Below the pieces are notes generated by a model. It saw only the letters and a program-made list of their open reading frames with translations, searched no databases and was not told where the DNA came from. This document shows, piece after piece, positions 1,351-50,954 of a DNA stretch of 64,000 nucleotides. The stretch is taken from NCBI GenBank assembly GCA_951406725.2, contig OX597814.1:8556001-8620000 (forward strand). Direction: 5' to 3'. The position numbers were made by a program, and so were the translations under genes. Source of the stretch: Octopus vulgaris (taxonomy: Eukaryota). The first letter of the stretch is position 1. The number at the start of each line of letters is the position of its first letter.

Positions 1351-1466
1351 AAACCACAACATCAAAACAGGAATCATCCTCCATGGCACCAAGAACTAAT
1401 GTGGCATTGACAAAGAATCGTGGCATCAAAATACAACTAATGATTGATTCAATTTCTAATGCATCT
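1351..1466 (+). CDS. Copy 1 exon a (linker + macrodomain start)
   Basis: ttttcag|aa...gcatct|gtgagt; translates TTTSKQESSSMAPRTNVALTKNRGIKIQLMIDSISNAS in phase with the next exon. Confidence 0.8.
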
Positions 1467-4400
1467 GTGAGTAAATAGATTCACTTAACATATTTATATT
1501 TAATTGTTATTTCATTTCCAAATGAGGAATCATTACAGTTAATTAAAACATTTTCTCAATCTAACTCAAACATTTTATTTCCTTCACATCTGATATCTTG
1601 AGTATATCTTTTGCTAACTTTAACAACCTCAAACTTACTACAGCCATTCTGTAGAGCCTTTCTTAACAACAATATCAACTGCAACAATGTATCTCTCTTC
1701 TCTCCATGGACTGTTCCTTAGTTGTTTACCATTAATTACTTTTGTAGGTTGATGTCATCGTTAACAGCACCAATGAACGGCTCCAGCTTAACAAGGGTTC
1801 TATTTCCAATTCTATTCTCAATGCTGCTGGTTCACAGATACAATATGAATGTAACCAGAGATATCCTCAAGGTATTTCTACATCTAAAATAGCCATCACT
1901 AAAGGATATAACCTCAAATGTAAGAATGTATTTCATCTGGTATTACCTCTCTGGGATGAAAATTCCTCTGATTTAGTAAGTATCAATCATATGATATTGA
2001 TTTATTGAAACAGTTAATGTTTGAAGAGAACCTTATGCATGTTGTGTGAGAATCATAAAGCAAATGTCAGCATCCTGTTTAATATTTGTTCTTCCAAGTT
2101 ATCATTGGAAGGAAGCAGAAGATATCGATGAAACAGGACACTTTTATATATAAATAGAAGGAAAAAAGCCTCATGGCCTAACAACAGTTATGTGACTGAT
2201 AAATAAGACTATATTAAAACATATTTCTCTGTTTTACTCTCTGTATTGGTGAGTTTTTCTCTGTCATGGCACGAGCACTAGAGAGGTTGTCATGTCCTCA
2301 ACAACACTAAAGACTCCTCTTGGGTCTGCAATGTCTCTCTTCATTCACCAACCATTTTACACGGTGGATTGGGTCTGATTTATTGTAGCAGCATCATGAG
2401 TGAGGTTGCCTTGTCCCTTGCAGGACTAAAGAGTGATAGGAATGACAGTTGTGTTTAGAAGTGGTAGGAGTGAGAGGAGTTGTGAGAGGAGGATATATTT
2501 ATTACAACTTAATGCTTTCTTCCTGTAATAAGAAAATAATTTAATAAAATGTTCATTATCAATTACTAAACAATTATTTTTTTTAGATTCTGGCAAACTT
2601 GACTCAAATAATAACCATTTGTCTATACACTGCTGAGAGAATGGGAGCAAAATGCTTGGCATTTCCTATATTAGGGGCTGGGATATTGAAGTACCCCATT
2701 GAAAACCTACCAAGAACTATGTACGAAGCCGTGAAAAACTACTCAAATCAAAATTCAAGCCAGATCAAAGATGTTTACTTCGTGGTTTATCCTCAAGACA
2801 CGGAAATAATGAAGGTTGGTTGATGTATTTGTTGTTTGTTGTTTTATGTTGATATTCTTGGAATTTACCAAAAAAATATTCTACAAGAAACAAAGGAAAT
2901 AGAAATGATCTTCATTTACAGTCCTTGTTCCATTTTGGAATTGGTGCAACATTTTGACTGGCTCCAATGAGCCACAAGGGTTTATTGAACCCCAGTGTCT
3001 GCTTTGGCATGGTTTCTATGGCTGAATGCCATTCCTAATGCCAACCGCTTCACAGCATGTCCTGGGTACCTTTCTTCATGCTACCTTTAATGCTGTTCAT
3101 TATATCTTGTTGTGCTTTATCCTTTCATTATACCATTTCCCATCACCAAATTCTTGCTTCTGAAATATTCCATTGTAACATTTGAAGCTAAGAATGTTTT
3201 GCTTGTTGTTGTTGTTGTTGTATTTATTGTTGGACCCTGAGTCAGTTCCGATTCTGCAGACTGAATGTCATAGATGCTTGTATGTCTTTCTTCTCTTCTT
3301 TCTTTCCATTCCTCCTCCTCCCCCTCTTCTTCCTAGCTGCCACAGCCAAGATCCATTTCACAAATGCCAAACCAATTACCTCTGTCCCTCTTCCCCCTTT
3401 CTCTCTGTTTCTTGTTCTGGGACTCTTGCAATAACATCAGTTGTAATTAGGTGGAACTTTCTCCCTATCCAAGTATGGAAATCTCCAAAATCTAACATCT
3501 GATATGGTCAACGGTTCAGCAAAATAGCTTTGGTCAGCAAACCCTATACTTTATTGAGCATCAAAAGCCAGGATGGATGGAATATGTCCACAAATTTCCT
3601 CTTTGGTTCAGTGCCCTTTAAAAAGCCTGGTGCATTTACCATCAAGCCTTGTCCACTTTGAAATATTTAATTTCCAGATGTTCTGAAGAATGTTTCAAGT
3701 AATCCAAGTTGTTTCCATTGTGCATGAAGAAGTCCCAAATAAAGACCCAAATTACCTGAGAGACCCCATTCTCTGGCTAAGACTTCCCACATTTATTCAC
3801 AAAACACTATAAAGCAGCAAGGTATGATGTGAGAGAGATTTGGCTGTTAATTTTAGCAGATCAAGTGACCACTTAAAGACCTCTTTCTTTGGTTCTTCTT
3901 GCGACTGTTCTTCATTCCCATGCAGTCAGTTATTAGTGTGGGGTAATATTTATCCCCGTTTAAATAAGAATGTTCCATTAGAACCAACTTTACTATGGTA
4001 ATTGCCATGAGAAAGACCCTCACATAGGCTTTTTGGAATGCCCTCTTCTTCATATCAGTAACAAAAAGATAAATCTTCAGCACCAAGGTCACCGAATGAC
4101 ATGATTTCCACCTTGTTTGAACTTATCGATGATGAACACTTGACCGCTAGAGACCGCAGTAATACAGGTCCCCTCCAGCGTTATATAGATTGACACTCCC
4201 TAGTGATCATGTGTCCATCATTGACAAGGTCCAAACAAGGTGGATATTATGTGATCTTGTTGTCCCAGTGCTGGAAGTAGCAGGGAATTATCTCCCCACT
4301 AGTGATATTAACAAGAATACATCTTGCACCAAAAATCCAATGTTACGGTTTAGCTCATGGCGTCTACCACAGTAAAGTTTGTACTAAAAGGACACCCATC

Positions 4401-5210: not shown

Positions 5211-8200
5211 CATGTGCATGCATATATTATTTTAGTGCTAACTTCATTTCACTACATTCCAAACATCCTGGTTCCCCACTTTATATAGAAATCGCCCATA
5301 GATATTTCCCTACACCACTGCTAGATCACTCTTTTGCCTATCAACTTCAAAGTTCTCCTCTGGAAGATGGTATGATTTTAATATATTGAGCCTCATGGCC
5401 TCTTCTCAAGGTATGTTCTTTTCTATTTTCTCTTCCCTTCATTTATTTTATTTTACGCATTTGTATTCACTCTGATGAAGCTCCAGATCAAATGTCCTAT
5501 GAAGATGATGAATATTAGTTTTGTAATTCTTTCATTAGCACTGACTGGCATTGGAAGCAGAAACAGCCGTAAGAATTGTTTTGTCATGTTTTGTATTGAA
5601 AAGTAATCTATAGATGTGATCCAATTTGTTTCTTTGTTGATCAAAAGTGTTCTTCATTTTCTGATTATTTAAATTTCATTGCCTCACAGAGGCAATGACA
5701 GGAGACCGTGACCTTTGGAGATATGCTGTGATCGAGAAGACCCTGCGACTAAAGTGAGATCGCAACCACACATGTCCAGCCCTGTTAAGAATACTCCTGA
5801 TGTGCCAAGCGATATGATATGCTTGATGAGACTTGTAGAGTCAAGTAAAACCAATATCGTAGCTGGAACCGTTGCCTTCTGACAGACTCCTGTGCCAATG
5901 GCATGTGAGGAGCACCATCCAAACATGGTCCATGCCAGGACTGTGCAAATATAGCCTTGGTGTCAACTGCAAAATGAGAAATGTGGTTTACTGAATGAAG
6001 TGCATGAATGGTGATTATAAAAACCAGAAGACTACATACATAGGTGAAATAGTGAGAAGTTTGGCCAAGCATATAAATAAACATTGGAGAGGATACAAGG
6101 ATTAGAGGCAGGCCTCAATACTCTACCAGCATGCCAAAGGACAACATGGTGGTGTGCGGAACCGAATTAGCATAGAAATCTTGTCTAGATACCCAGACAA
6201 TGCATTCTACAACAGATACAATATTTTTTCATGTGCCACCTACACAAGTGTCAGCAAGGCGACACAGGTAATGATCATGCTCGAATAGTGATTTTACGTG
6301 CCACTGGCACGGAGTCCAACTTGTTGCTCTGGCAACAATCACGCTCGTATGGTGCTCTTAGCGCTCCACTAGCATAGGATGTCAGTCATCGAATTTGATT
6401 CTGATTTCACTTGCCTCAACTGGTCTTCGCAAGCAGAGTTTAGTGTCCAATGAAGGAAAGGTACGCATAAGTGAGCTGGTTACACCCCTGGCATAGGCCA
6501 CGAGGTTATGGTCTCACTTAAGCTTGCTGAGTCTTCTCAAGCACAGCATATTTCCAAAGGTTCCAGTCACTAGTCATTGCCTTGGTGAGGCCCAATGTTT
6601 AAAGGTCATGCTTCACCACTTCATCCCAGGTCTTCATAGGTCTACCTCTTCCACAGGTTCCCTCAACCGCTAGGGTGTGGCACTTTGTCACACAGCTATC
6701 CACATCTATTCTCGCCACATGACCATACCAGCACAGTCGTCTCTCTTGCACACTACATCTGATGCTTCTTAGGTCCAACTTATCTTTCAAGGTACCAATA
6801 CTCTGTCGAGCATGCACACTGACATTACACATCCATCGGGCATAGTGGCTTCATTCCTTGTGAGCTTACGCATGTCCTCAGCAGTATATATACATATACA
6901 AACATTATGTAAATACATAGTGAGACTAATAGAACTGAAATTAATATATATACAGATAGTGAAAGTAATTGAAATTGAAGCCATATAATCGTGAAACTAT
7001 TATATCACATTACAATAGAGATATTATTGTTTCACTTTTGACACAATACCAAAACAGTGTAAGAGATAAGAGATTTCTCTGGGCTTGCATTAGGCAAGAA
7101 GTTGAAACATTTTTTGGCCCATAACACTGCATAGACCCTAAGTAAGGCATGTGTAAAATTTGAATGATATTTGTTGAATTGGTTGGGTAGTTCTCGAGTT
7201 TTAGTGATGCACACAGATACACACGCACATTTTCAGTTTTATTTATATTGATAAATAGAAATGTAAATTTAAAACAATATTCATGATAGAAGCAATGAAT
7301 AAAAGCATTGCATTGAAATTAACAGAAATTAATTAGGAAATTAATTATGTTTTTGATTGAGTGATGATAAATTATTTGTTTACTTCTAACAGAAATTTCA
7401 TGAATATTTCCAAGGAAACACGACAGGTAGTTCAGCTGCATCATCAGGTAAATACTTTCTTTTTATTTATCTTAAATTTTATTTAGGAAAAAACTAGTGT
7501 CTCTTTTCGTGGTTGTTGTTGTTCAGGAGGTGAGCTGGCAGAATCATTAGCATGTTGGGCAAAATGCTTAGTGGCATTTTGTCTGTCTTAACATTCTGAG
7601 TTCAAATTCCACCTTTCAGGGACAATGAAATAAGTACCAGTTACACACTGGGGTCAGTGTAATCCAGAATCCCTTCCTCCAAAACTTCAGGCCTTGTGCC
7701 TTTAATAACAAAGAGTATTATTTTTATTATTATTGAGTGAGAGAGCAATGCATGCCATCAAAGTGACAGTGAGGTACAAATATACAAAGTCCAGTATACC
7801 CATTATGTCTACCCATCTGATAAGGGTACACCAGGCCCATACATCACAACCATATGTGTGTGACATTATGATCTCATAACAAGATAAACAGTGTATGACC
7901 TTGCAGGTGGGGCTCAGACTTTCTTGTCATATCGAAGAGCCCATCCCGCTCAAAAGATTCCTGAATAAGGGGTGTTTAAAGATGATGAATGAAACACCCA
8001 TGTTTCCAAAGGTGAATTATCCAAACCCCAAAGAATCCCCCTCAACACATGGCTATGATGCTCCCCCACTACTTCTGCTCATGATCAGAGATGCACATAT
8101 TGTCAGCCCCTAAGGGACATGCTCAACTGGTTACGGTCAAACAACTGACAAGCAAATCTGTGGTATTGAGCAGAATATTTGCTGTAACCCATCTTTTATA

Positions 8201-11200: not shown

Positions 11201-14200
11201 CCACTGAAAGAAACACACCAGATTGTTCATTTACAAAGTCATGTGATAGAGAAAAAGTGGAAGAAAGACATAGAGAAAGATAAAAATGTAAACAAAGAAA
11301 ATAAAGGGGAAAAAAGTAAAGAAAATTCACAGCAACAATGCTCTTCTCAATACGTGTGACCAGTTACCAGTTAAGACAATCTTTTGCACTTCCTGTATGG
11401 ATGGTAAGCCAGGGATCATTCTTAAATAATTTTCAGTTCCTGTTTTGATCATTCCAACTGCTCCTACAATCACTGGTATTGTAGCCATCTTGAGATGCGA
11501 CATCTTTTTGATTTCAATCAGCAGATCTTTATATTTTCTGAGCTTATCAAATTCTTTTGCTGAGATATCATAGTCACAAAGTACGCTCACATCAATCAAT
11601 AAACAGACTTTATTGTTTTGGTCTTTCAAAACAATTTCTGGTTTATTAGCTTTGATGGTCACATCTGTACATACTGGGAAGTCCCAAAGAATCGTTACAT
11701 TTTCTCCCTCTCTAACAGCCTCAGGGTGGTGCCTGTACCATTTGTCAGCAATTTTGATTTTATGATACTGATACATTATCCAAAGTAGATACTGGTCGAC
11801 ACTGTCATTTCTTGATTTATACTCTACTGGTGCTAAATCCTTACACCCAGAGATTAGGTGGTCCACTGTTTCAATCCCATCCTTACAGTATAGGCACTTT
11901 TAGTCTAAACAATTTTTCATCACATTGGCTTGATAGTTCTGCGTCAATAAGTTCTGATCTTGGGTAGCCAAGATAAAGCCTTCACTCTCTGCCTTTAGCC
12001 CTGAGCTCCCTAGCTACTGATGGGTGTGCTTCTGGTCTACATCAGCTTGTTTGCTATGGGCCACATATTTGCCATGCAGAGGTTTTTGTTCCCACCTATC
12101 AACCAATTGTTTAAACGCATTTTGCTTTGCTCTTCATTTCACCTTCTTTGCAACTAGAGTTGTTGCACTTCCCTCATGCAGTTCCACTTGAACACAACAG
12201 AATGAGGCTTTTTATGTCTTTCGTGTTTCTCAATGAGCTTTTGCAGCCATTTGTCAGATGTTTCAAGATATTTTACCTGACCAATTGTGGTGGTTTTGTA
12301 GGAGATTTCAAGTCGAATCAAACCTTGACTTCCTTGAGCTCTGGGTAGGTAAACACGATCTGCATCGGCCTTTGGGTGGTGCATCCTCTTGCTTATTGAT
12401 TTTCCTGTCAGTGTTCCTTATTTTGACTGTGGCAACATCCAACTCCACTGAATGTGAGGTCTTCAGTTTTCCTTTCTGGAAAGTGACCTTGGCACACTTA
12501 TCAAAACCAAATTCCATCCCGATGTCCTTACTAAATGCTTTCACAGTATGTAGCAGTCCTTCAAGCTCATTATCATCTTTGCCACAGAGTTTTAAGTCAT
12601 CCACATAAAATAGATGACTTGTTTTCTTGTCGCCAATTTAATATTCATACCCTGTTCTGTTGAATTCATTTGTAATGAGTATTAGGGCTATGCAGAAAAT
12701 TAAGAATGAAAGTGAGTCACCTTGGAAAATGCTACAGTTGATATTAATATCTTTTGTGGTCAGTACTCCATCAGAGTGGTATAACTGGAGATTTGTATTC
12801 CACATTGACATGTTGTGCTTCAGGAAATGTGAGGAATTTGGAAGATATCCAGCGATTTCAAGATCCATGAATGCAGCATGCTGTCAAAGGCCTTTTTTAT
12901 AATCAATCCATGCAGAACTGAGATTTCTGCATTTGCTATGACAGTTCCTCAAGGGCCATGCTATTCATTAAGAGTTGGTCTTTACATCCATATGAGCCTT
13001 GTTGGCACCCTTTTTGTTCAGTGGGGAAAATATCATTCTGTTCCATAAATTTGTATGTTTTTCTCCATGAGGATGGATGCTAAAATTTCATACGTGGCAG
13101 ATAGACATGTCATGGGTGGATAGTCTTGGGGAAAGCTGGTTCCATTATTCTTCAGGAGAAGGTAAGTAATACCTCTTGCTAACCAATCGGGTGTTTTTGC
13201 AGGATCTCTCATAATTTCATTAAATACCTGAACTTAATTTTCATGTCTGCATGGGAGTGAAATTTTGCACACTATCATTACTACTATTAAACTATAGAAA
13301 TCATTAGTAATTCAGTGTTTCTTGTCTAAACCCAACATTTTGTCAAAATATACCTGTTTTTTTATAAACTTTCAACAATATTCTTATATTTGTTCTGAAA
13401 TATTTGATTTCTATTTGAACTTTAGAACCAATCCCAGATACATGGTCACCAATGGAAGACGAGGAATTAATTAAAATCGTTCCAGTCACAAGTGGATCAG
13501 AATATGATGACATCCAGGCCACTTTCCGTCGGAATTTGCCTTCCTATCGTATAATCAAAGTTTGTATTTTTACTTCTGTTTATAAACAATATTTGATGGT
13601 TTATTGTTAAAACAAAATGTTAAGAGACATTTTGTTTGTGTAAAAGACTTAAATCTCATAGTATGAACCTATTTTGGGATGGTTTTATGTGTTTTTGGAT
13701 ATTCACAAGAAATCTTTGCTCAACAAAAATACCTCTGCTTTAACTTCTTGCATTGAATTGTAAATGCAACACCATTTTGCAGCTAAACTATTATACCTTA
13801 CCAAAATTTACAGTTGAATCAAAATTGGTATCAAATAAAAAAAGAAAAAAGAAAACAGATAGGGTTGGGGATTTTCACCACAAATGTTATTTCCTTGTCA
13901 AAGAAGTGAATTGATTGTCTTTTCATAACTGTATTTTCCTTTCTACAGATTGAGAGAATTCAAAATAAAACATTATGCCAGAGATACAAAGCATTGAAAG
14001 AACAATTTGAGGCAGAAAATCCAAATACTGAAATTGAAGTTGATGGCCTTTGGCATGGTACTACTGCAGAATGTGTTGAAAGAATAAATAGATATGGATT
14101 CAACTGTAGATATTGTAGTAAAAATGGTAAGTAAATATTCTCGAAGTGGCAGCAGTAGTGTCCTCTACCCACCCTTCCTATTGTCCTGAGCTGGACAGTC

Positions 14201-16624
14201 ACTCTCCACATTGATTGCTGTTTAGAATCCTTTCTCACACAGAGAGGATGCCATGTTGCTCACACATTCCATGTTTGGCATCGTTTCTACTGCCAGGTCC
14301 CCTCCTAACATCTTCTGCTCTAGAGTAAACCAGGTGTATCTTATTATTGTGGAACCAACACTTTTATTTGGATTGGGAGGAAGGGTCTGTCCCCATCCAT
14401 TAATGTTCCTCTTGAACCTTTGTAAATGAAAATATTGCAGGAAAGATAAGAGAAGGGGTGGAATTCCAGAGGGGTAATGTTTTGGGGAAGAAGGACTGGG
14501 TGTAGTGGTGGGTCGGCAGGACTGGACAGAAATATCAACAAGTGAACACCAGGCCTAACAATCACCATTCTGAGTGGGTCAATTATAGATATACTGAGAT
14601 AATCAATACAGTGTTGTTAACTCTCATTGAAATATTCAATGTCTGCTACGGCCTAGAAATTGGTTAAGGGACATTTAATAACTGTACAGAAATCTGATAA
14701 ACCAGCAGAGGTACCATCACAGAGGTCACTCCATTTAGATATCTCAAACGACCCTCTCTCACTAACTCTTTTATCATCTTTTGGAATTAGATTTTGATGT
14801 GTATGGTGAATATGGATATGGGGTGAGTAGAAGAGTGGGGTTCCACAAAATGCTACCCAAACAAGTTCAATGGTAAATATTGGCAAGGGACAGGCTCTCC
14901 CAATGATAAAACATCATTTCCTGAAACCTGTTTGATGTCACATGGTGTCATGTGATGATGGAATGTCTTAGATTCAAAGAGATAAGCTCAATATCTCGTG
15001 TGACCACTATTAGTGTTGATTACTACCCGGCATCTTCTGCATATTGAATGCACCAAACGATTGATGAAAGCCATGGGGATAGCAGCTGACACTCTGTTAA
15101 AACCTGCAGTGAGCTGTCTCTGAGTTTTCAGTCTTGGACGGGTGTCATTTAGCCTTCTTTGGGGTTTCATCCCACAGGTGCTCTATAGGGTTTGAGTCTG
15201 GACTGAAGCCAGTGTCTGGATGTTGATGTTTTTGGAGGAAGCCTGTTGTCAACCTGCAGTATGGTCACGGGCATTGTTATGTCAGAACATGTAATTCCAA
15301 CAACAGGCAAAGTATGGCACAATGTGAGGCCTCCAAATTTGGTCAATATAGCAAGCAGCAGTTACTCCATTTCCTCAGCCTTCACCAATGTTTCGGAAGA
15401 CCACCAGTTCAGGTTTATGGTTGAGTGCAATCTTGCCCCTTGCCATGATGCTCTGTCTTCCCTATGAGTATCACTCCACCATACAGCCATTGGCACGACA
15501 TTCCCCCTTCTCCTCCAAATGCCAGCTCTGCTGTCTTCCAGAGAAATGCAATATCGACTTCTGTCAGACAAGACTACACTCCTCCACTACTCATGTTGCC
15601 CGCTCTGACGTTTTTCAGCTCACTGCAGATGTACCCATCAATAATGATCTGTGAGGATGTGGCTCCTAGCTGGACTTTGGTGAGTCAAATTGAAAGGTCT
15701 CAGCACAAATGGGTCTGTGGTGAGTTCCTATGCTCTGCCTAGCTGATTCCATTGTCCTAAAGAATCAGTCCTGCAAGTGCTGTCGCTGCAGATGACAATC
15801 ATGACGTGTTGTTATAACCCTTGGTCGGCCACTGTGTGGATGATTATCCATGTTGTTTGTGGCACTATCTCATTCCCTCGGCCATTCAATTGTCCAAATA
15901 CTGCAGTTCAAGTCATTAGCAATGACCTATGGACGTTGAACAGTATGGAGACATCCGATGGCTTGCTCCCTCTGATTTCATGTCAGTCTTGTTACACTTG
16001 CTGCATTTGGGAAATGAATGATAGGCTGGAGAACTTGGGTGCCTCTTACACCCAAAAGAGTCGACGTTCTGGCCCTGCATCATGCTTTGCATAAAGATGC
16101 GTTCGTGAGCATTACCATATTCACGAGAAGTGAGCGAGTTTGAACCCTAAATGCAATCCTTGTGTTTTCAAAAGAGAGTGGTGTTGTGGGTCAGTGACAT
16201 CTTCCTGATGTCAAATTACCTAGAATTGTGATAAAATCTATATAATCTCAATGTCGTGAAACAAATAATCTTTTACAGTGTGATGTGTTTATATTATAAC
16301 TGTATCAAGGAATTTCCGAAACACTCCAAATATATATATATTTTTTTCTTTCTGTTCTTAGGTGGATATGGTAAAGGTGTCTATTTTGCCAAAAACATCC
16401 AATATTCTGCAGATGATAACTATTCTCCTCCTGACCATCACAAAATAAAGAGAATATACCAATGCAGTGTTCTTGTAGGAAGAATGATACAAGGACACCC
16501 AGGATTAAAAGTTTTACAGGATCCTTACAATTCTGCTGTTGATGATATTCAAAGACCCTTTATTTATGTTACTTTCGATGACTCTCAAGCATATCCTAAT
16601 TATTTGATTACATTCTCTAATTGA
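1351..16624 (+). CDS. PARP14-like: Macrodomain + ART mono-ADP-ribosyltransferase (PARP14/PARP15-like), copy 1; spliced join(1351-1466,1748-1975,2587-2814,7393-7447,13426-13559,13949-14126,16362-16624); may be 5'-incomplete
   Basis: Seven exons with AG/GT boundaries and consistent phases give ~399 aa with no stop. Macrodomain motifs VDVIVNSTN..LNKGSIS and AFPILGAG..YP; ART motifs WHGT, YGKGVYFA and IYVTFDDSQAYPNYLITF (H-Y-I triad, mono-ART type). Family-level call; orthology not established. Confidence 0.9.
1748..1975 (+). CDS. Copy 1 exon b (macrodomain N-half)
   Basis: tttgtag|gtt...tta|gtaagt; 76 codons VDVIVNSTNERLQLNKGSISNSILNAAG...GYNLKCKNVFHLVLP. Confidence 0.92.
2587..2814 (+). CDS. 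Copy 1 exon c (macrodomain C-half)
   Basis: ttttag|att...aag|gttggt; 76 codons including CLAFPILGAGILKYP and IKDVYFVVYPQD. Confidence 0.92.
4390..5170 (-). mobile_element. RTE-clade LINE fragment
   Basis: KAPGPSGITAE..IPNDWRSSTIVNCYKGKGDALDRNNYRGIKLLD; same family as 26050-30030. Confidence 0.9.
5225..5680 (+). mobile_element. Probable Penelope-like element 3' remnant
   Basis: Decayed ..EPHGL end motif followed by a hammerhead-like fold. Confidence 0.45.
5465..5576 (+). ncRNA. Type I hammerhead ribozyme-like motif (degenerate)
   Basis: CTGATGA (5472-5478), long stem II region, GAAAC-agcc-GTA (5560-5571); stem I imperfect. Confidence 0.55.
5688..5940 (+). mobile_element. RTE 3' fragment
   Basis: EAMTGDRDLWRYAVIEKT end-of-ORF segment plus 3'UTR-like sequence. 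Confidence 0.6.
6220..6885 (-). mobile_element. RTE 3' fragment
   Basis: ERRLCWYGHVAR...GRGRPMKTWDEVV plus 3'UTR repeats. Confidence 0.88.
7393..7447 (+). CDS. Copy 1 exon d (55-nt linker exon)
   Basis: ttctaacag|aaa...tcag|gtaaat; KFHEYFQGNTTGSSAASS; phases match both neighbours; conserved in copy 2. Confidence 0.82.
7526..7715 (+). mobile_element. tRNA-derived SINE, family B (paralogous copy 50572-50752 on -; decayed copy 8345-8530)
   Basis: GAGCTGGCAGAA head and GAGTTCAAATTCC B-box-like motif; three related copies. Confidence 0.65.
7734..8291 (+). repeat. ~555-bp dispersed repeat of unknown class bounded by (ATT)n; other copies 43430-43987 and 49996-50552 on -
   Basis: Three aligned copies with the same ends. 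Confidence 0.85.
8530..10940 (+). mobile_element. Degenerate, internally deleted L1/Tx1-like LINE
   Basis: APE start FRVGCVNVCGLR..TAFSKTR (~9490); LSLKGRAEVASVYIVSIIIY (~10325). Confidence 0.65.
11120..13260 (-). mobile_element. R4/Dong-clade (RLE) non-LTR retrotransposon, 5'-truncated
   Basis: IFQGDSLS, DDLKL, HLISGC, ILWDF..TIKANKPEIV..LLIDVS restriction-like endonuclease. Confidence 0.9.
13426..13559 (+). CDS. Copy 1 exon e (ART domain N-terminus)
   Basis: tttag|aa cca...aaa|gtttgt; PIPDTWSPM...SEYDDIQATF matches the P..W..M / EY..V...F start of PARP catalytic domains. Confidence 0.9.
13949..14126 (+). CDS. Copy 1 exon f (ART catalytic His, donor loop)
   Basis: ctacag|att...aatg|gtaagt; IERIQN..LWHGT..GFNCRYCSKN. 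Confidence 0.93.
14988..16250 (-). mobile_element. Tc1-family transposon remnant (mirror copy ~22750-23925 on +)
   Basis: SPDSNPIEHLWDE and RRCRVVINTNSGHTRY C-terminal Tc1 transposase motifs, frameshifted. Confidence 0.85.
16362..16624 (+). CDS. Copy 1 terminal exon g (ART C-half)
   Basis: ttcttag|gt gga tat; GYGKGVYFA...QAYPNYLITFSN then TGA. Confidence 0.94.
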
Positions 16625-16714
16625 AATTAAGACTTTTGTAATGCTTTGAGCTGAGATTGGTAATTCTAAAGCCATTCACATTTCTATCCTTAAAATTATT
16701 AAAACTAACACTCT

Positions 16715-17760
16715 TCAAATTTATAACGCTAACAATATTTGAATTTGTAACACAAAACTATTCTGATTCTTCTTTTTTTTATTCTTTTACTTGTTTCAGT
16801 CATTTGACTGTGGCCATACTGGTGCACTGCCTTTAGTCGGGCAAATCAAACCCAGGACTTATTCTTTGTAAGCCTGGTACTTATTCTATTGTTCTCTTTT
16901 GCCAAACCGTTAGGTTGCGGGGATGTAAACAAACTAGCATCAGTTGTTAAACAATGTTGGGGGGATAAACACAGACACACAAGCACACACACACACACAC
17001 ACACACATACATACATACATATCCATCTATATAATGTTGGGCTTCTTTCAGTTTCCATCTACCAAATCCATGCACAAGGCTTTGGTTGGACCAAGGCTAT
17101 AGTAGAAGACGTTTGCCCAAGGTGCCACCCAGTGGGACTGAACCTGGAATCACGTGGCTGGTAAGCTAGCAACTTACCACACAGCCACTCCAGCACCTAT
17201 TCAAATTTGTAACATTAAAAGCATTCATATGAAAATTATTCACATTTGTGTCAGTTAAGATTTGTAACATTAAAACTATTAAAAAATGTATCACTACCAC
17301 TTTTCAAAAGAGTAACACTAAAACTTCAAATATGTAATAATTAAACCTATTTGAATTTTTAACGCTAACACTGTTCACATTTGTAACACTAACACTGTTC
17401 AAATTTGTAACAATATAACTATCCAGATTTGTAACACTAACAATATTTGAATTTGTAACACAAAAATTATTGAAATTTGTATCACTAACACTATTCAAAT
17501 TTGTAACATTAAAAGCATTCAGATTTGTAATAGGAAAATTATTCAGATTTGTAACAGGAAAATTATTCAGATTTGTGACATTAAAACTATTGAAACTTGT
17601 ATTACTACCACTATTCAAATTTGTAACACTAAAACTATTCAAATTTGTAACAATAACAATATTTGAATTTGTAACAATAAAACTATTCAGATTTGTAACA
17701 GGAAAACTATTCAGATTTGTAACAGGAAAACTATTCAGATTTCTGATGCTAAAATAATTG
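16715..17760. repeat. 24-bp minisatellite (ttcaaatttgtaacactaaaacta-like) interrupted by a SINE
   Basis: About 20 degenerate units at 17200-17760 and 2-3 units at 16715-16765; 8-aa periodicity in the spurious ORFs. Confidence 0.88.
16772..17197 (-). mobile_element. tRNA-derived SINE, family A
   Basis: A-box TGGCTGTGTGG, B-box GGTTCAGTCC, internal CA/TA microsatellite; 5 copies in the window. Confidence 0.88.

Positions 17761-22369: not shown

Positions 22370-50954
<28,585 letters not shown>

Follow-up and report, generated by a model that had tools for sequence, protein, structure and literature searches.

A two-type ADP-ribosyltransferase exon in a converting PARP14/15-like gene family of Octopus vulgaris

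How does one exon come to differ strongly between two paralogs whose adjoining sequence is almost identical? The question is raised by two genes in a 64,000-nt stretch of Octopus vulgaris contig OX597814.1 (forward-strand positions 8,556,001 to 8,620,000), here referred to as the window, whose coordinates are used unless the contig (G000:C1) is named. The genes, copy 1 and copy 2, form an inverted, tail-to-tail pair that shares a homogenised block of ~3.6 kb, from exon e to the 3' UTR region (13308-17021 on the + strand versus 25586-21974 on the - strand). We report that exon f, inside this block, carries a real peak of divergence, that it belongs to one of two old exon types in a family of at least 17 genes, and that selection against conversion offers one explanation of why it stands out.

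Copy 1 consists, on the + strand, of macrodomain exons a (1351..1466, the start of the last macrodomain), b (1748..1975) and c (2587..2814), a linker exon d (7393..7447) and the ADP-ribosyltransferase (ART) exons e (N-terminus of the domain, 13426..13559), f (13949..14126; helix a2, the His of HGT, helix a3 and the D-loop base) and g (16362..16624; catalytic Tyr and Ile, the equivalent of PARP15 D665, and the stop), all in frame. The part of copy 2 in the window comprises, on the - strand, exons d (50900..50954), e (25321..25454), f (24778..24955) and g (22370..22632); its macrodomain exons, linked to exon d by position, lie on the same strand past the window (G000:C1 ~8.65 Mb), are intact and are 95% like those of copy 1. 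PF00644 (PARP-type ART) matches exons f and g (exon f alone scores under the curated cut-off), PF01661 (macrodomain) matches homologs, and the ART domain matches human PARP15 with E 1.6e-37 (query P0016). A protein search with exon f gave 18 matches, every one an Octopus protein (17 named PARP14/15-like and one uncharacterised), and exon f of nine copies is letter-identical to named O. vulgaris proteins. The genes are PARP14/15-like, in agreement with the macro-PARP identity proposed in an earlier note on this DNA. Both copies keep an H-Y-hydrophobic triad without the catalytic Glu (H-Y-I), which predicts the mono-ADP-ribosyltransferase type; the same triad is present in 16 of the 17 copies, one of which (L005) is out of frame before the Ile. 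Exon f had been called the catalytic exon, which is correct for the triad His, but the Tyr and Ile are in exon g.

Both window copies (at 16362 and 22632) are among the 5 of 17 copies in which a shifted splice acceptor takes one residue from the D-loop. The public model of copy 2, P0016, is without exon d and the macrodomains, its first 75 residues are largely a transposon-like ORF (33055-33462, - strand), and it is probably a mis-annotation. An AlphaFold single-sequence model of P0016 had a pLDDT of 31.6 and was left unused, and a complex prediction for P0001 with P0016 (77-265) scored 0.10. The spacer between the genes holds a 24-bp minisatellite of 20 copies (17260-17742), with 2.7 related units directly past the copy 2 stop codon. 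A 403-bp direct repeat (99.5%; 30090-30492 and 32237-32639) in intron d-e of copy 2 adjoins transposase-like ORF fragments.

A recount of exon f returned the earlier figures: 27 of 178 nt differ, 21 of 59 amino acids are changed, and a single codon (AAT/AAC) is purely synonymous. The Nei-Gojobori method gives 24 nonsynonymous and 3 synonymous steps, rather than one, because two of the latter sit in multi-hit codons. In the alignment exon e differs at 1 of 134 nt and the first 230 nt of intron e-f at 2; divergence rises toward exon f, the remainder of the intron differing at 11 of 135 nt plus a 23-nt deletion in copy 2, and the first 36 nt beyond the exon align poorly (13/32 and a 4-nt indel). 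WHGT is unchanged between the copies, and copy 1 has three extra Cys (C10, C42 and C53, against Y, A and R in copy 2). The rest of the block, beyond the divergent tract, has 62 differences in 3094 positions (2.0%; the peak stands out with Fisher p 3e-14), and the most divergent 178-column window there has 13. Exon g of the two copies is 8 nt and 6 amino acids apart. The description of the pair as otherwise homogenised holds for the block from exon e to the 3' end only, the last macrodomain region being just 95% identical; the intron immediately upstream of copy 2 exon e is 91% identical to that of L010 (351 nt) and 78% to that of copy 1 (142 nt).

Searching the octopus genome itself, we found that exons e, f and g are each present at least 17 times, all on a single contig, with paralogs clustered around 5-9 Mb and around 207-216 Mb. 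Two of the copies have a type A exon f, namely copy 1 (L001) and a twin, L002, which differ from each other at 3 nt, all nonsynonymous; copy 2 (L015) and ten others have type B and are 1-14 nt apart, and four further copies are mosaics. The types differ from each other by 24-31 nt and each has its own 3' flank. The 23-nt deletion of copy 2 is common to L014, L016 and L017. Since the FNRS motif is present in type B, in PARP14/15 and in fish, bat, clam and snail homologs, type A would be the derived state at this motif. That the 21 changes arose between these two copies, as had been supposed, is not the case; they separate two old exon types spread across the family of at least 17 genes and two other Octopus species.

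Several members and regions of the family deserve mention in their own right. L002 (G000:C1 ~7.587-7.609 Mb) is a twin of copy 1, 98.4-99.3% identical over at least 21 kb (versus window 1-21632), with an exon g that has no differences from that of copy 1; it lies 969 kb from copy 1, the likeness stops just before copy 2, and it is either a recent duplicate or an uncollapsed haplotype. In L004 the triad reads H-S-N (exon g, L034) and exon g is identical in the O. sinensis ortholog P0008, which suggests that a likely inactive paralog has been conserved, a situation like that of PARP9. Exon g of L005 (L021) has a one-base deletion, so that the frame is lost before the third triad residue, and is intact in sinensis P0011. 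Convergent inverted paralog pairs are located at G000:C1 7.60/7.66, 8.57/8.58 and 206.77/206.81 Mb, and the exon d sequences of the clusters at 8.5 Mb and 216 Mb share 99% identity. Within the B copies, L007-L017, pN is lower in exon f (0.046) than in e (0.095) or g (0.111), the pattern that would result if conversion had spread a single B version.

A walk along informative sites, in copy 1 coordinates, resolved copy 2 into a copy-1-like part (13413-13763), an L016-like part (13793-14159, ~370 bp) and a mostly copy-1-like part from 14163. The B-type tract, with its copy 2 ends taken from the pairwise alignment (24749..25087, - strand), covers the end of intron e-f with the 23-nt deletion, exon f and the 3' flank. 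A further copy-1 tract, likewise ending at exon f, is present in L007 (intron 0/230 and 3/157). Neighbouring sites are more compatible with each other than shuffled ones (p 0.0005), as expected under conversion, and the same test restricted to exon f gave p 0.17. The tract walk, the incompatibility test and the distances among paralogs bear out the claim of gene conversion. With respect to age, the B tract differs from its nearest relative, L016, at 11 of 344 positions and the 5' tract from copy 1 at 3 of 364 (p 0.03; limited to introns, p 0.14), so the copy-1 tracts in copy 2 look younger, which speaks weakly for an old exon that stayed in place and against one imported recently. A recent simple import of exon f into copy 2 was rejected, there being no near-exact donor in the 16 other copies (the nearest is 6/178 nt away); a donor absent from the assembly would fit. 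Exon f of copy 1 does have a close match, 3 nt away in L002, but L002 is a twin of the whole gene.

For the other Octopus species the data are protein gene models, among which chimeric models are possible. Within these, P0002 and P0018 of O. sinensis are 2/44 amino acids apart in exon e and 23/59 in exon f, and P0009 and P0034 of O. bimaculoides 1/44 and 17/59. P0009 clusters with type A (support 96/86 in a 59-column tree whose bootstrap has not settled, and which omits sinensis isoforms, the duplicate P0015 and bimaculoides P0019 and P0031). Exon f groups by type across species and the flanking exon within species (gene models, 59 columns), and read-through ends of bimaculoides models include both flank types. 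At 14 diagnostic positions most B copies across species have B residues at 13-14 of them. The bimaculoides-sinensis split has been placed at 13-34 Myr (PMC10925132). In sinensis P0003, exons e and g are L003-like and exon f is 4 amino acids from copy 1; from this model, exon f appears to move between genes.

The explanation that we prefer starts from observations: the family, the A and B types with their own flanks, the mosaic tracts, the same layout in the gene models of two species and the amino-acid excess in the ART domain described below. The island is an old two-type exon in a PARP14/15-like family of at least 17 genes that exchange DNA via conversion; copy-1 sequence would have overwritten copy 2 on both flanks of exon f and spared the exon, and selection rather than chance would hold the island by removing those conversions that erase the A/B difference. 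High mismatch and flanking indels can also stop conversion without any selection. On that basis the ART domain could diversify family-wide under selection and the island be a chance B-type segment, imported or left over, that resists conversion passively, as expected if the tract and its flanks match L014, L016 and L017, as they do. At synonymous sites A and B are as far apart in exon f (0.10) as in e (0.11) and g (0.08), and the depth of the island is therefore simply family background; the mosaics show conversion within exon f, and the exon swaps between orthologs (sinensis P0003). Such a patchwork fits less well with the lack of a near-exact donor, with the recurrence of a shared exon e and a split exon f in three species and in L007, and with the retention of 13-14 of the 14 diagnostic residues in most B copies; we regard it as unlikely, though a serious contender.

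For the pair alone, pN/pS of exon f is 2.1-2.8 with a binomial p of 0.056-0.157 depending on kappa, so the pair by itself gives no dN/dS significantly above 1 and pairwise dN/dS was set aside as proof of selection. Across the 17 copies diversity is 0.102 in exons versus 0.055 in those adjacent introns that could be aligned (an ascertained sample, and with columns that are not independent). We applied self-built codon models with fixed relative branch lengths. M0 omega was 1.21 for e, 1.95 for f, 1.98 for g and 0.56 for macrodomain exon c (18 copies; 20 of 40 macro matches were fetched, and two of those 20, of lengths 225 and 227, were excluded), and the M2a versus M1a likelihood ratio (LRT) was 7.6, 20.4, 59.0 and 6.0, respectively. 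About 30% of exon f sites were at omega ~4, the best-scoring ones (40, 42 and 44) being on the helix after HGT. Mosaic nulls were simulated because mosaic trees inflate the site-model LRT. The exon f value was attained by 0/97 plain nulls and by 1/91 and 1/86 mosaic nulls (2/177), the exon g value by 0/85 nulls. A tree-free test, in which distinct variants were counted against an intron-derived spectrum, gave 7 synonymous and 52 nonsynonymous variants for exon f (ratio 2.3, p 0.016), p 0.003 for e, f and g pooled, p 0.15 for exon e, p 0.08 for exon g and a ratio of 0.63 for macrodomain exon c. As a source of this excess CpG mutation or GC-biased conversion was rejected, the signal surviving removal of CpG columns (exon f p 0.042, pooled p 0.008) and W>S changes equalling S>W.

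With LRTs beyond nearly all nulls and a tree-free excess, there is support for positive selection on the entire ART domain, exon f being one part of it and exon g showing the strongest signal; dN/dS is thus above 1 family-wide, though not significantly so for the pair. A relaxed constraint, with redundant copies drifting at a dN/dS of about 1 and recombination or mutation bias creating a spurious excess, would agree with the non-significant pair test, the p of 0.15 for exon e, the frameshift in L005, the lost triad in L004 and the inflation seen in mosaic nulls (22/91 and 36/86 above 5.99). We consider it very unlikely, given that the observed LRTs exceed almost all mosaic nulls, that the signal stays without L002, L004 and L005 (f 12.3, g 61.0) and in B copies alone (f 16.8, g 49.7), that the tree-free excess outlasts CpG removal, and that frames and triads are intact in 15 of 17 copies.

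Transcripts were looked for in contigs from four sequencing runs, the RNA status of which was guessed, none of the runs that contain the sequence being catalogued as RNA. The e-f splice joint is present in 4/4 runs, as is the f-g joint with a copy-1-type start (inserted letters listed for three), and both forms of codon 49 are present in all four. The family is spliced; these are transcripts at the family level, with contigs that are not assignable to copy 2.

Where on the protein do the two types differ? We aligned exon f to PARP15, anchored on H559, and took the polar dimer contacts from supplement 1 of PMC12572374 (F532, Q535, S536, Q543, H572, N575, R576, S577, T644 and D665). Eight map to exon f codons 8, 11, 12, 19, 49, 52, 53 and 54, and the two others to exon g. 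Copies 1 and 2 differ at seven of these eight exon f codons (p 0.002 relative to all codons, 0.027 relative to the 33 that vary and 0.09-0.14 at class level among variable codons), an enrichment that is post hoc and concerns polar contacts only (8 in exon f, of 27 interface residues). The changes appear to match a PARP15-type surface of dimer and D-loop base better than they match catalytic residues. Codon 53, the equivalent of R576, is Arg in type B and Cys in type A (copy 1); R576 is required for dimerisation and activity of PARP15, whereas PARP14, as described in PMC12572374, keeps the same Arg yet is monomeric (for R576 see PMC12572374; bioRxiv 10.64898/2025.12.15.694324). Loss of the Arg is a CpG transition (CGT to TGT/CAT) and has also occurred in two B-type models, P0032 and P0035. 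The octopus family resembles the PARP15 dimer in that the D665 equivalent is present in 17/17 copies and the R576 equivalent in 13/17, and in that eight of the ten polar contacts of the interface fall in exon f; it differs in that type A, as read from sequence alone, is without the Arg and has the Q535/Q543 pair, while in type B the Arg is there and residue 543 is a Lys.

The earlier note had placed the difference in the pocket, with selection preserving two types that differ in the NAD+ pocket or in the substrates they accept. Codon 45, which is G in B and R in A, does align with PARP15 Y568, which swings into the NAD+ pocket, and the top sites 40, 42 and 44 are on the helix after HGT. In PARP15 dimer, D-loop and target engagement are coupled (for this and Y568, PMC12572374; bioRxiv 10.64898/2025.12.15.694324), and therefore the pocket proposal overlaps with our main explanation; as a separate account, set against the better match to the dimer surface, we give it little probability. 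Under the main explanation the two kept versions are probably of the surface through which human PARP15 dimerises to become active and on which its D-loop is anchored. The selected trait would be contact with a partner or target rather than catalytic chemistry, for instance pairing with itself, the choice of a partner or evasion of a pathogen antagonist, and immune conflict might, by analogy, be the driver. Counting against this account, exon g, which is converted in this pair, has a stronger selection signal than exon f. Of the original idea that selection opposes conversion here, the conversion and the family-wide dN/dS above 1 stand, but the changes were not born in the pair and selection is ART-wide and strongest in exon g. 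On balance we lean somewhat towards opsin- or MHC-like selection against conversion at exon f, likely acting on a partner-contact surface. A bolder version, which we think quite unlikely, is combinatorial ADP-ribosylation, in which conversion would reshuffle a dimer-interface exon among at least 17 macro-PARPs and the two types, kept for more than 13 million years, would set which paralogs pair and activate one another; if true, it would be an MHC-like diversification of an enzyme pairing code in an invertebrate.

Red/green opsin exon 5 offers a parallel, with one diverged exon between converted neighbours, low-divergence flanking introns and an exon shared by type across species (PMC3924837); it differs in that opsin concerns two loci, whereas the octopus has a multi-copy family with a peak read from its DNA only. 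As in the patchwork of MHC, self-incompatibility and R-genes (PMC3924837), exons exceed introns in diversity, short tracts reshuffle motifs and broken copies are kept, but the octopus case is an intracellular enzyme domain compared between paralogs. Vertebrate PARP14 and PARP15 have a history of gene birth and loss and of positive selection, in primates also on the PARP14 ART domain, and clustered PARP14-type duplicates are known in lancelet and sponges (PMC4038475, PMC13224862). The octopus genes are like them in layout, with a mono-ART domain (E 1.6e-37 to PARP15) placed after macrodomains. They differ in their at least 17 copies, interlocus conversion and trans-species exon dimorphism, in the triad (H-Y-I versus H-Y-L), and in ART exons with higher M0 omega (1.2-2.0) than the one macrodomain exon sampled (0.56), a comparison that is not like-for-like. 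A described cephalopod or mollusc macro-PARP expansion was not found in the literature searched, most of it outside subscription journals, where only a PARP14-like mucus protein appeared (PMC11431876); the main text of PMC13669787 does not contain 'PARP'. It is thus known already that macro-PARPs evolve under positive selection, the ART domain of PARP14 included, and that invertebrates can have PARP14 clusters; new are the scale of the family, the two exon types shared across species and the way in which they match the PARP15 dimer surface.

The finding would mean that the arms race of vertebrate macro-PARPs has a counterpart in a cephalopod, with far higher copy number and a focus on the writer domain; an immune role of octopus macro-PARPs is suggested by analogy, and the paralogs are candidate innate-immunity genes in octopus. 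The pair is also a natural swap experiment: the two ART domains are 21 residues apart in exon f and only 7 elsewhere in e and g, and therefore the role of the dimer/D-loop surface in activity and target choice becomes testable outside mammals.
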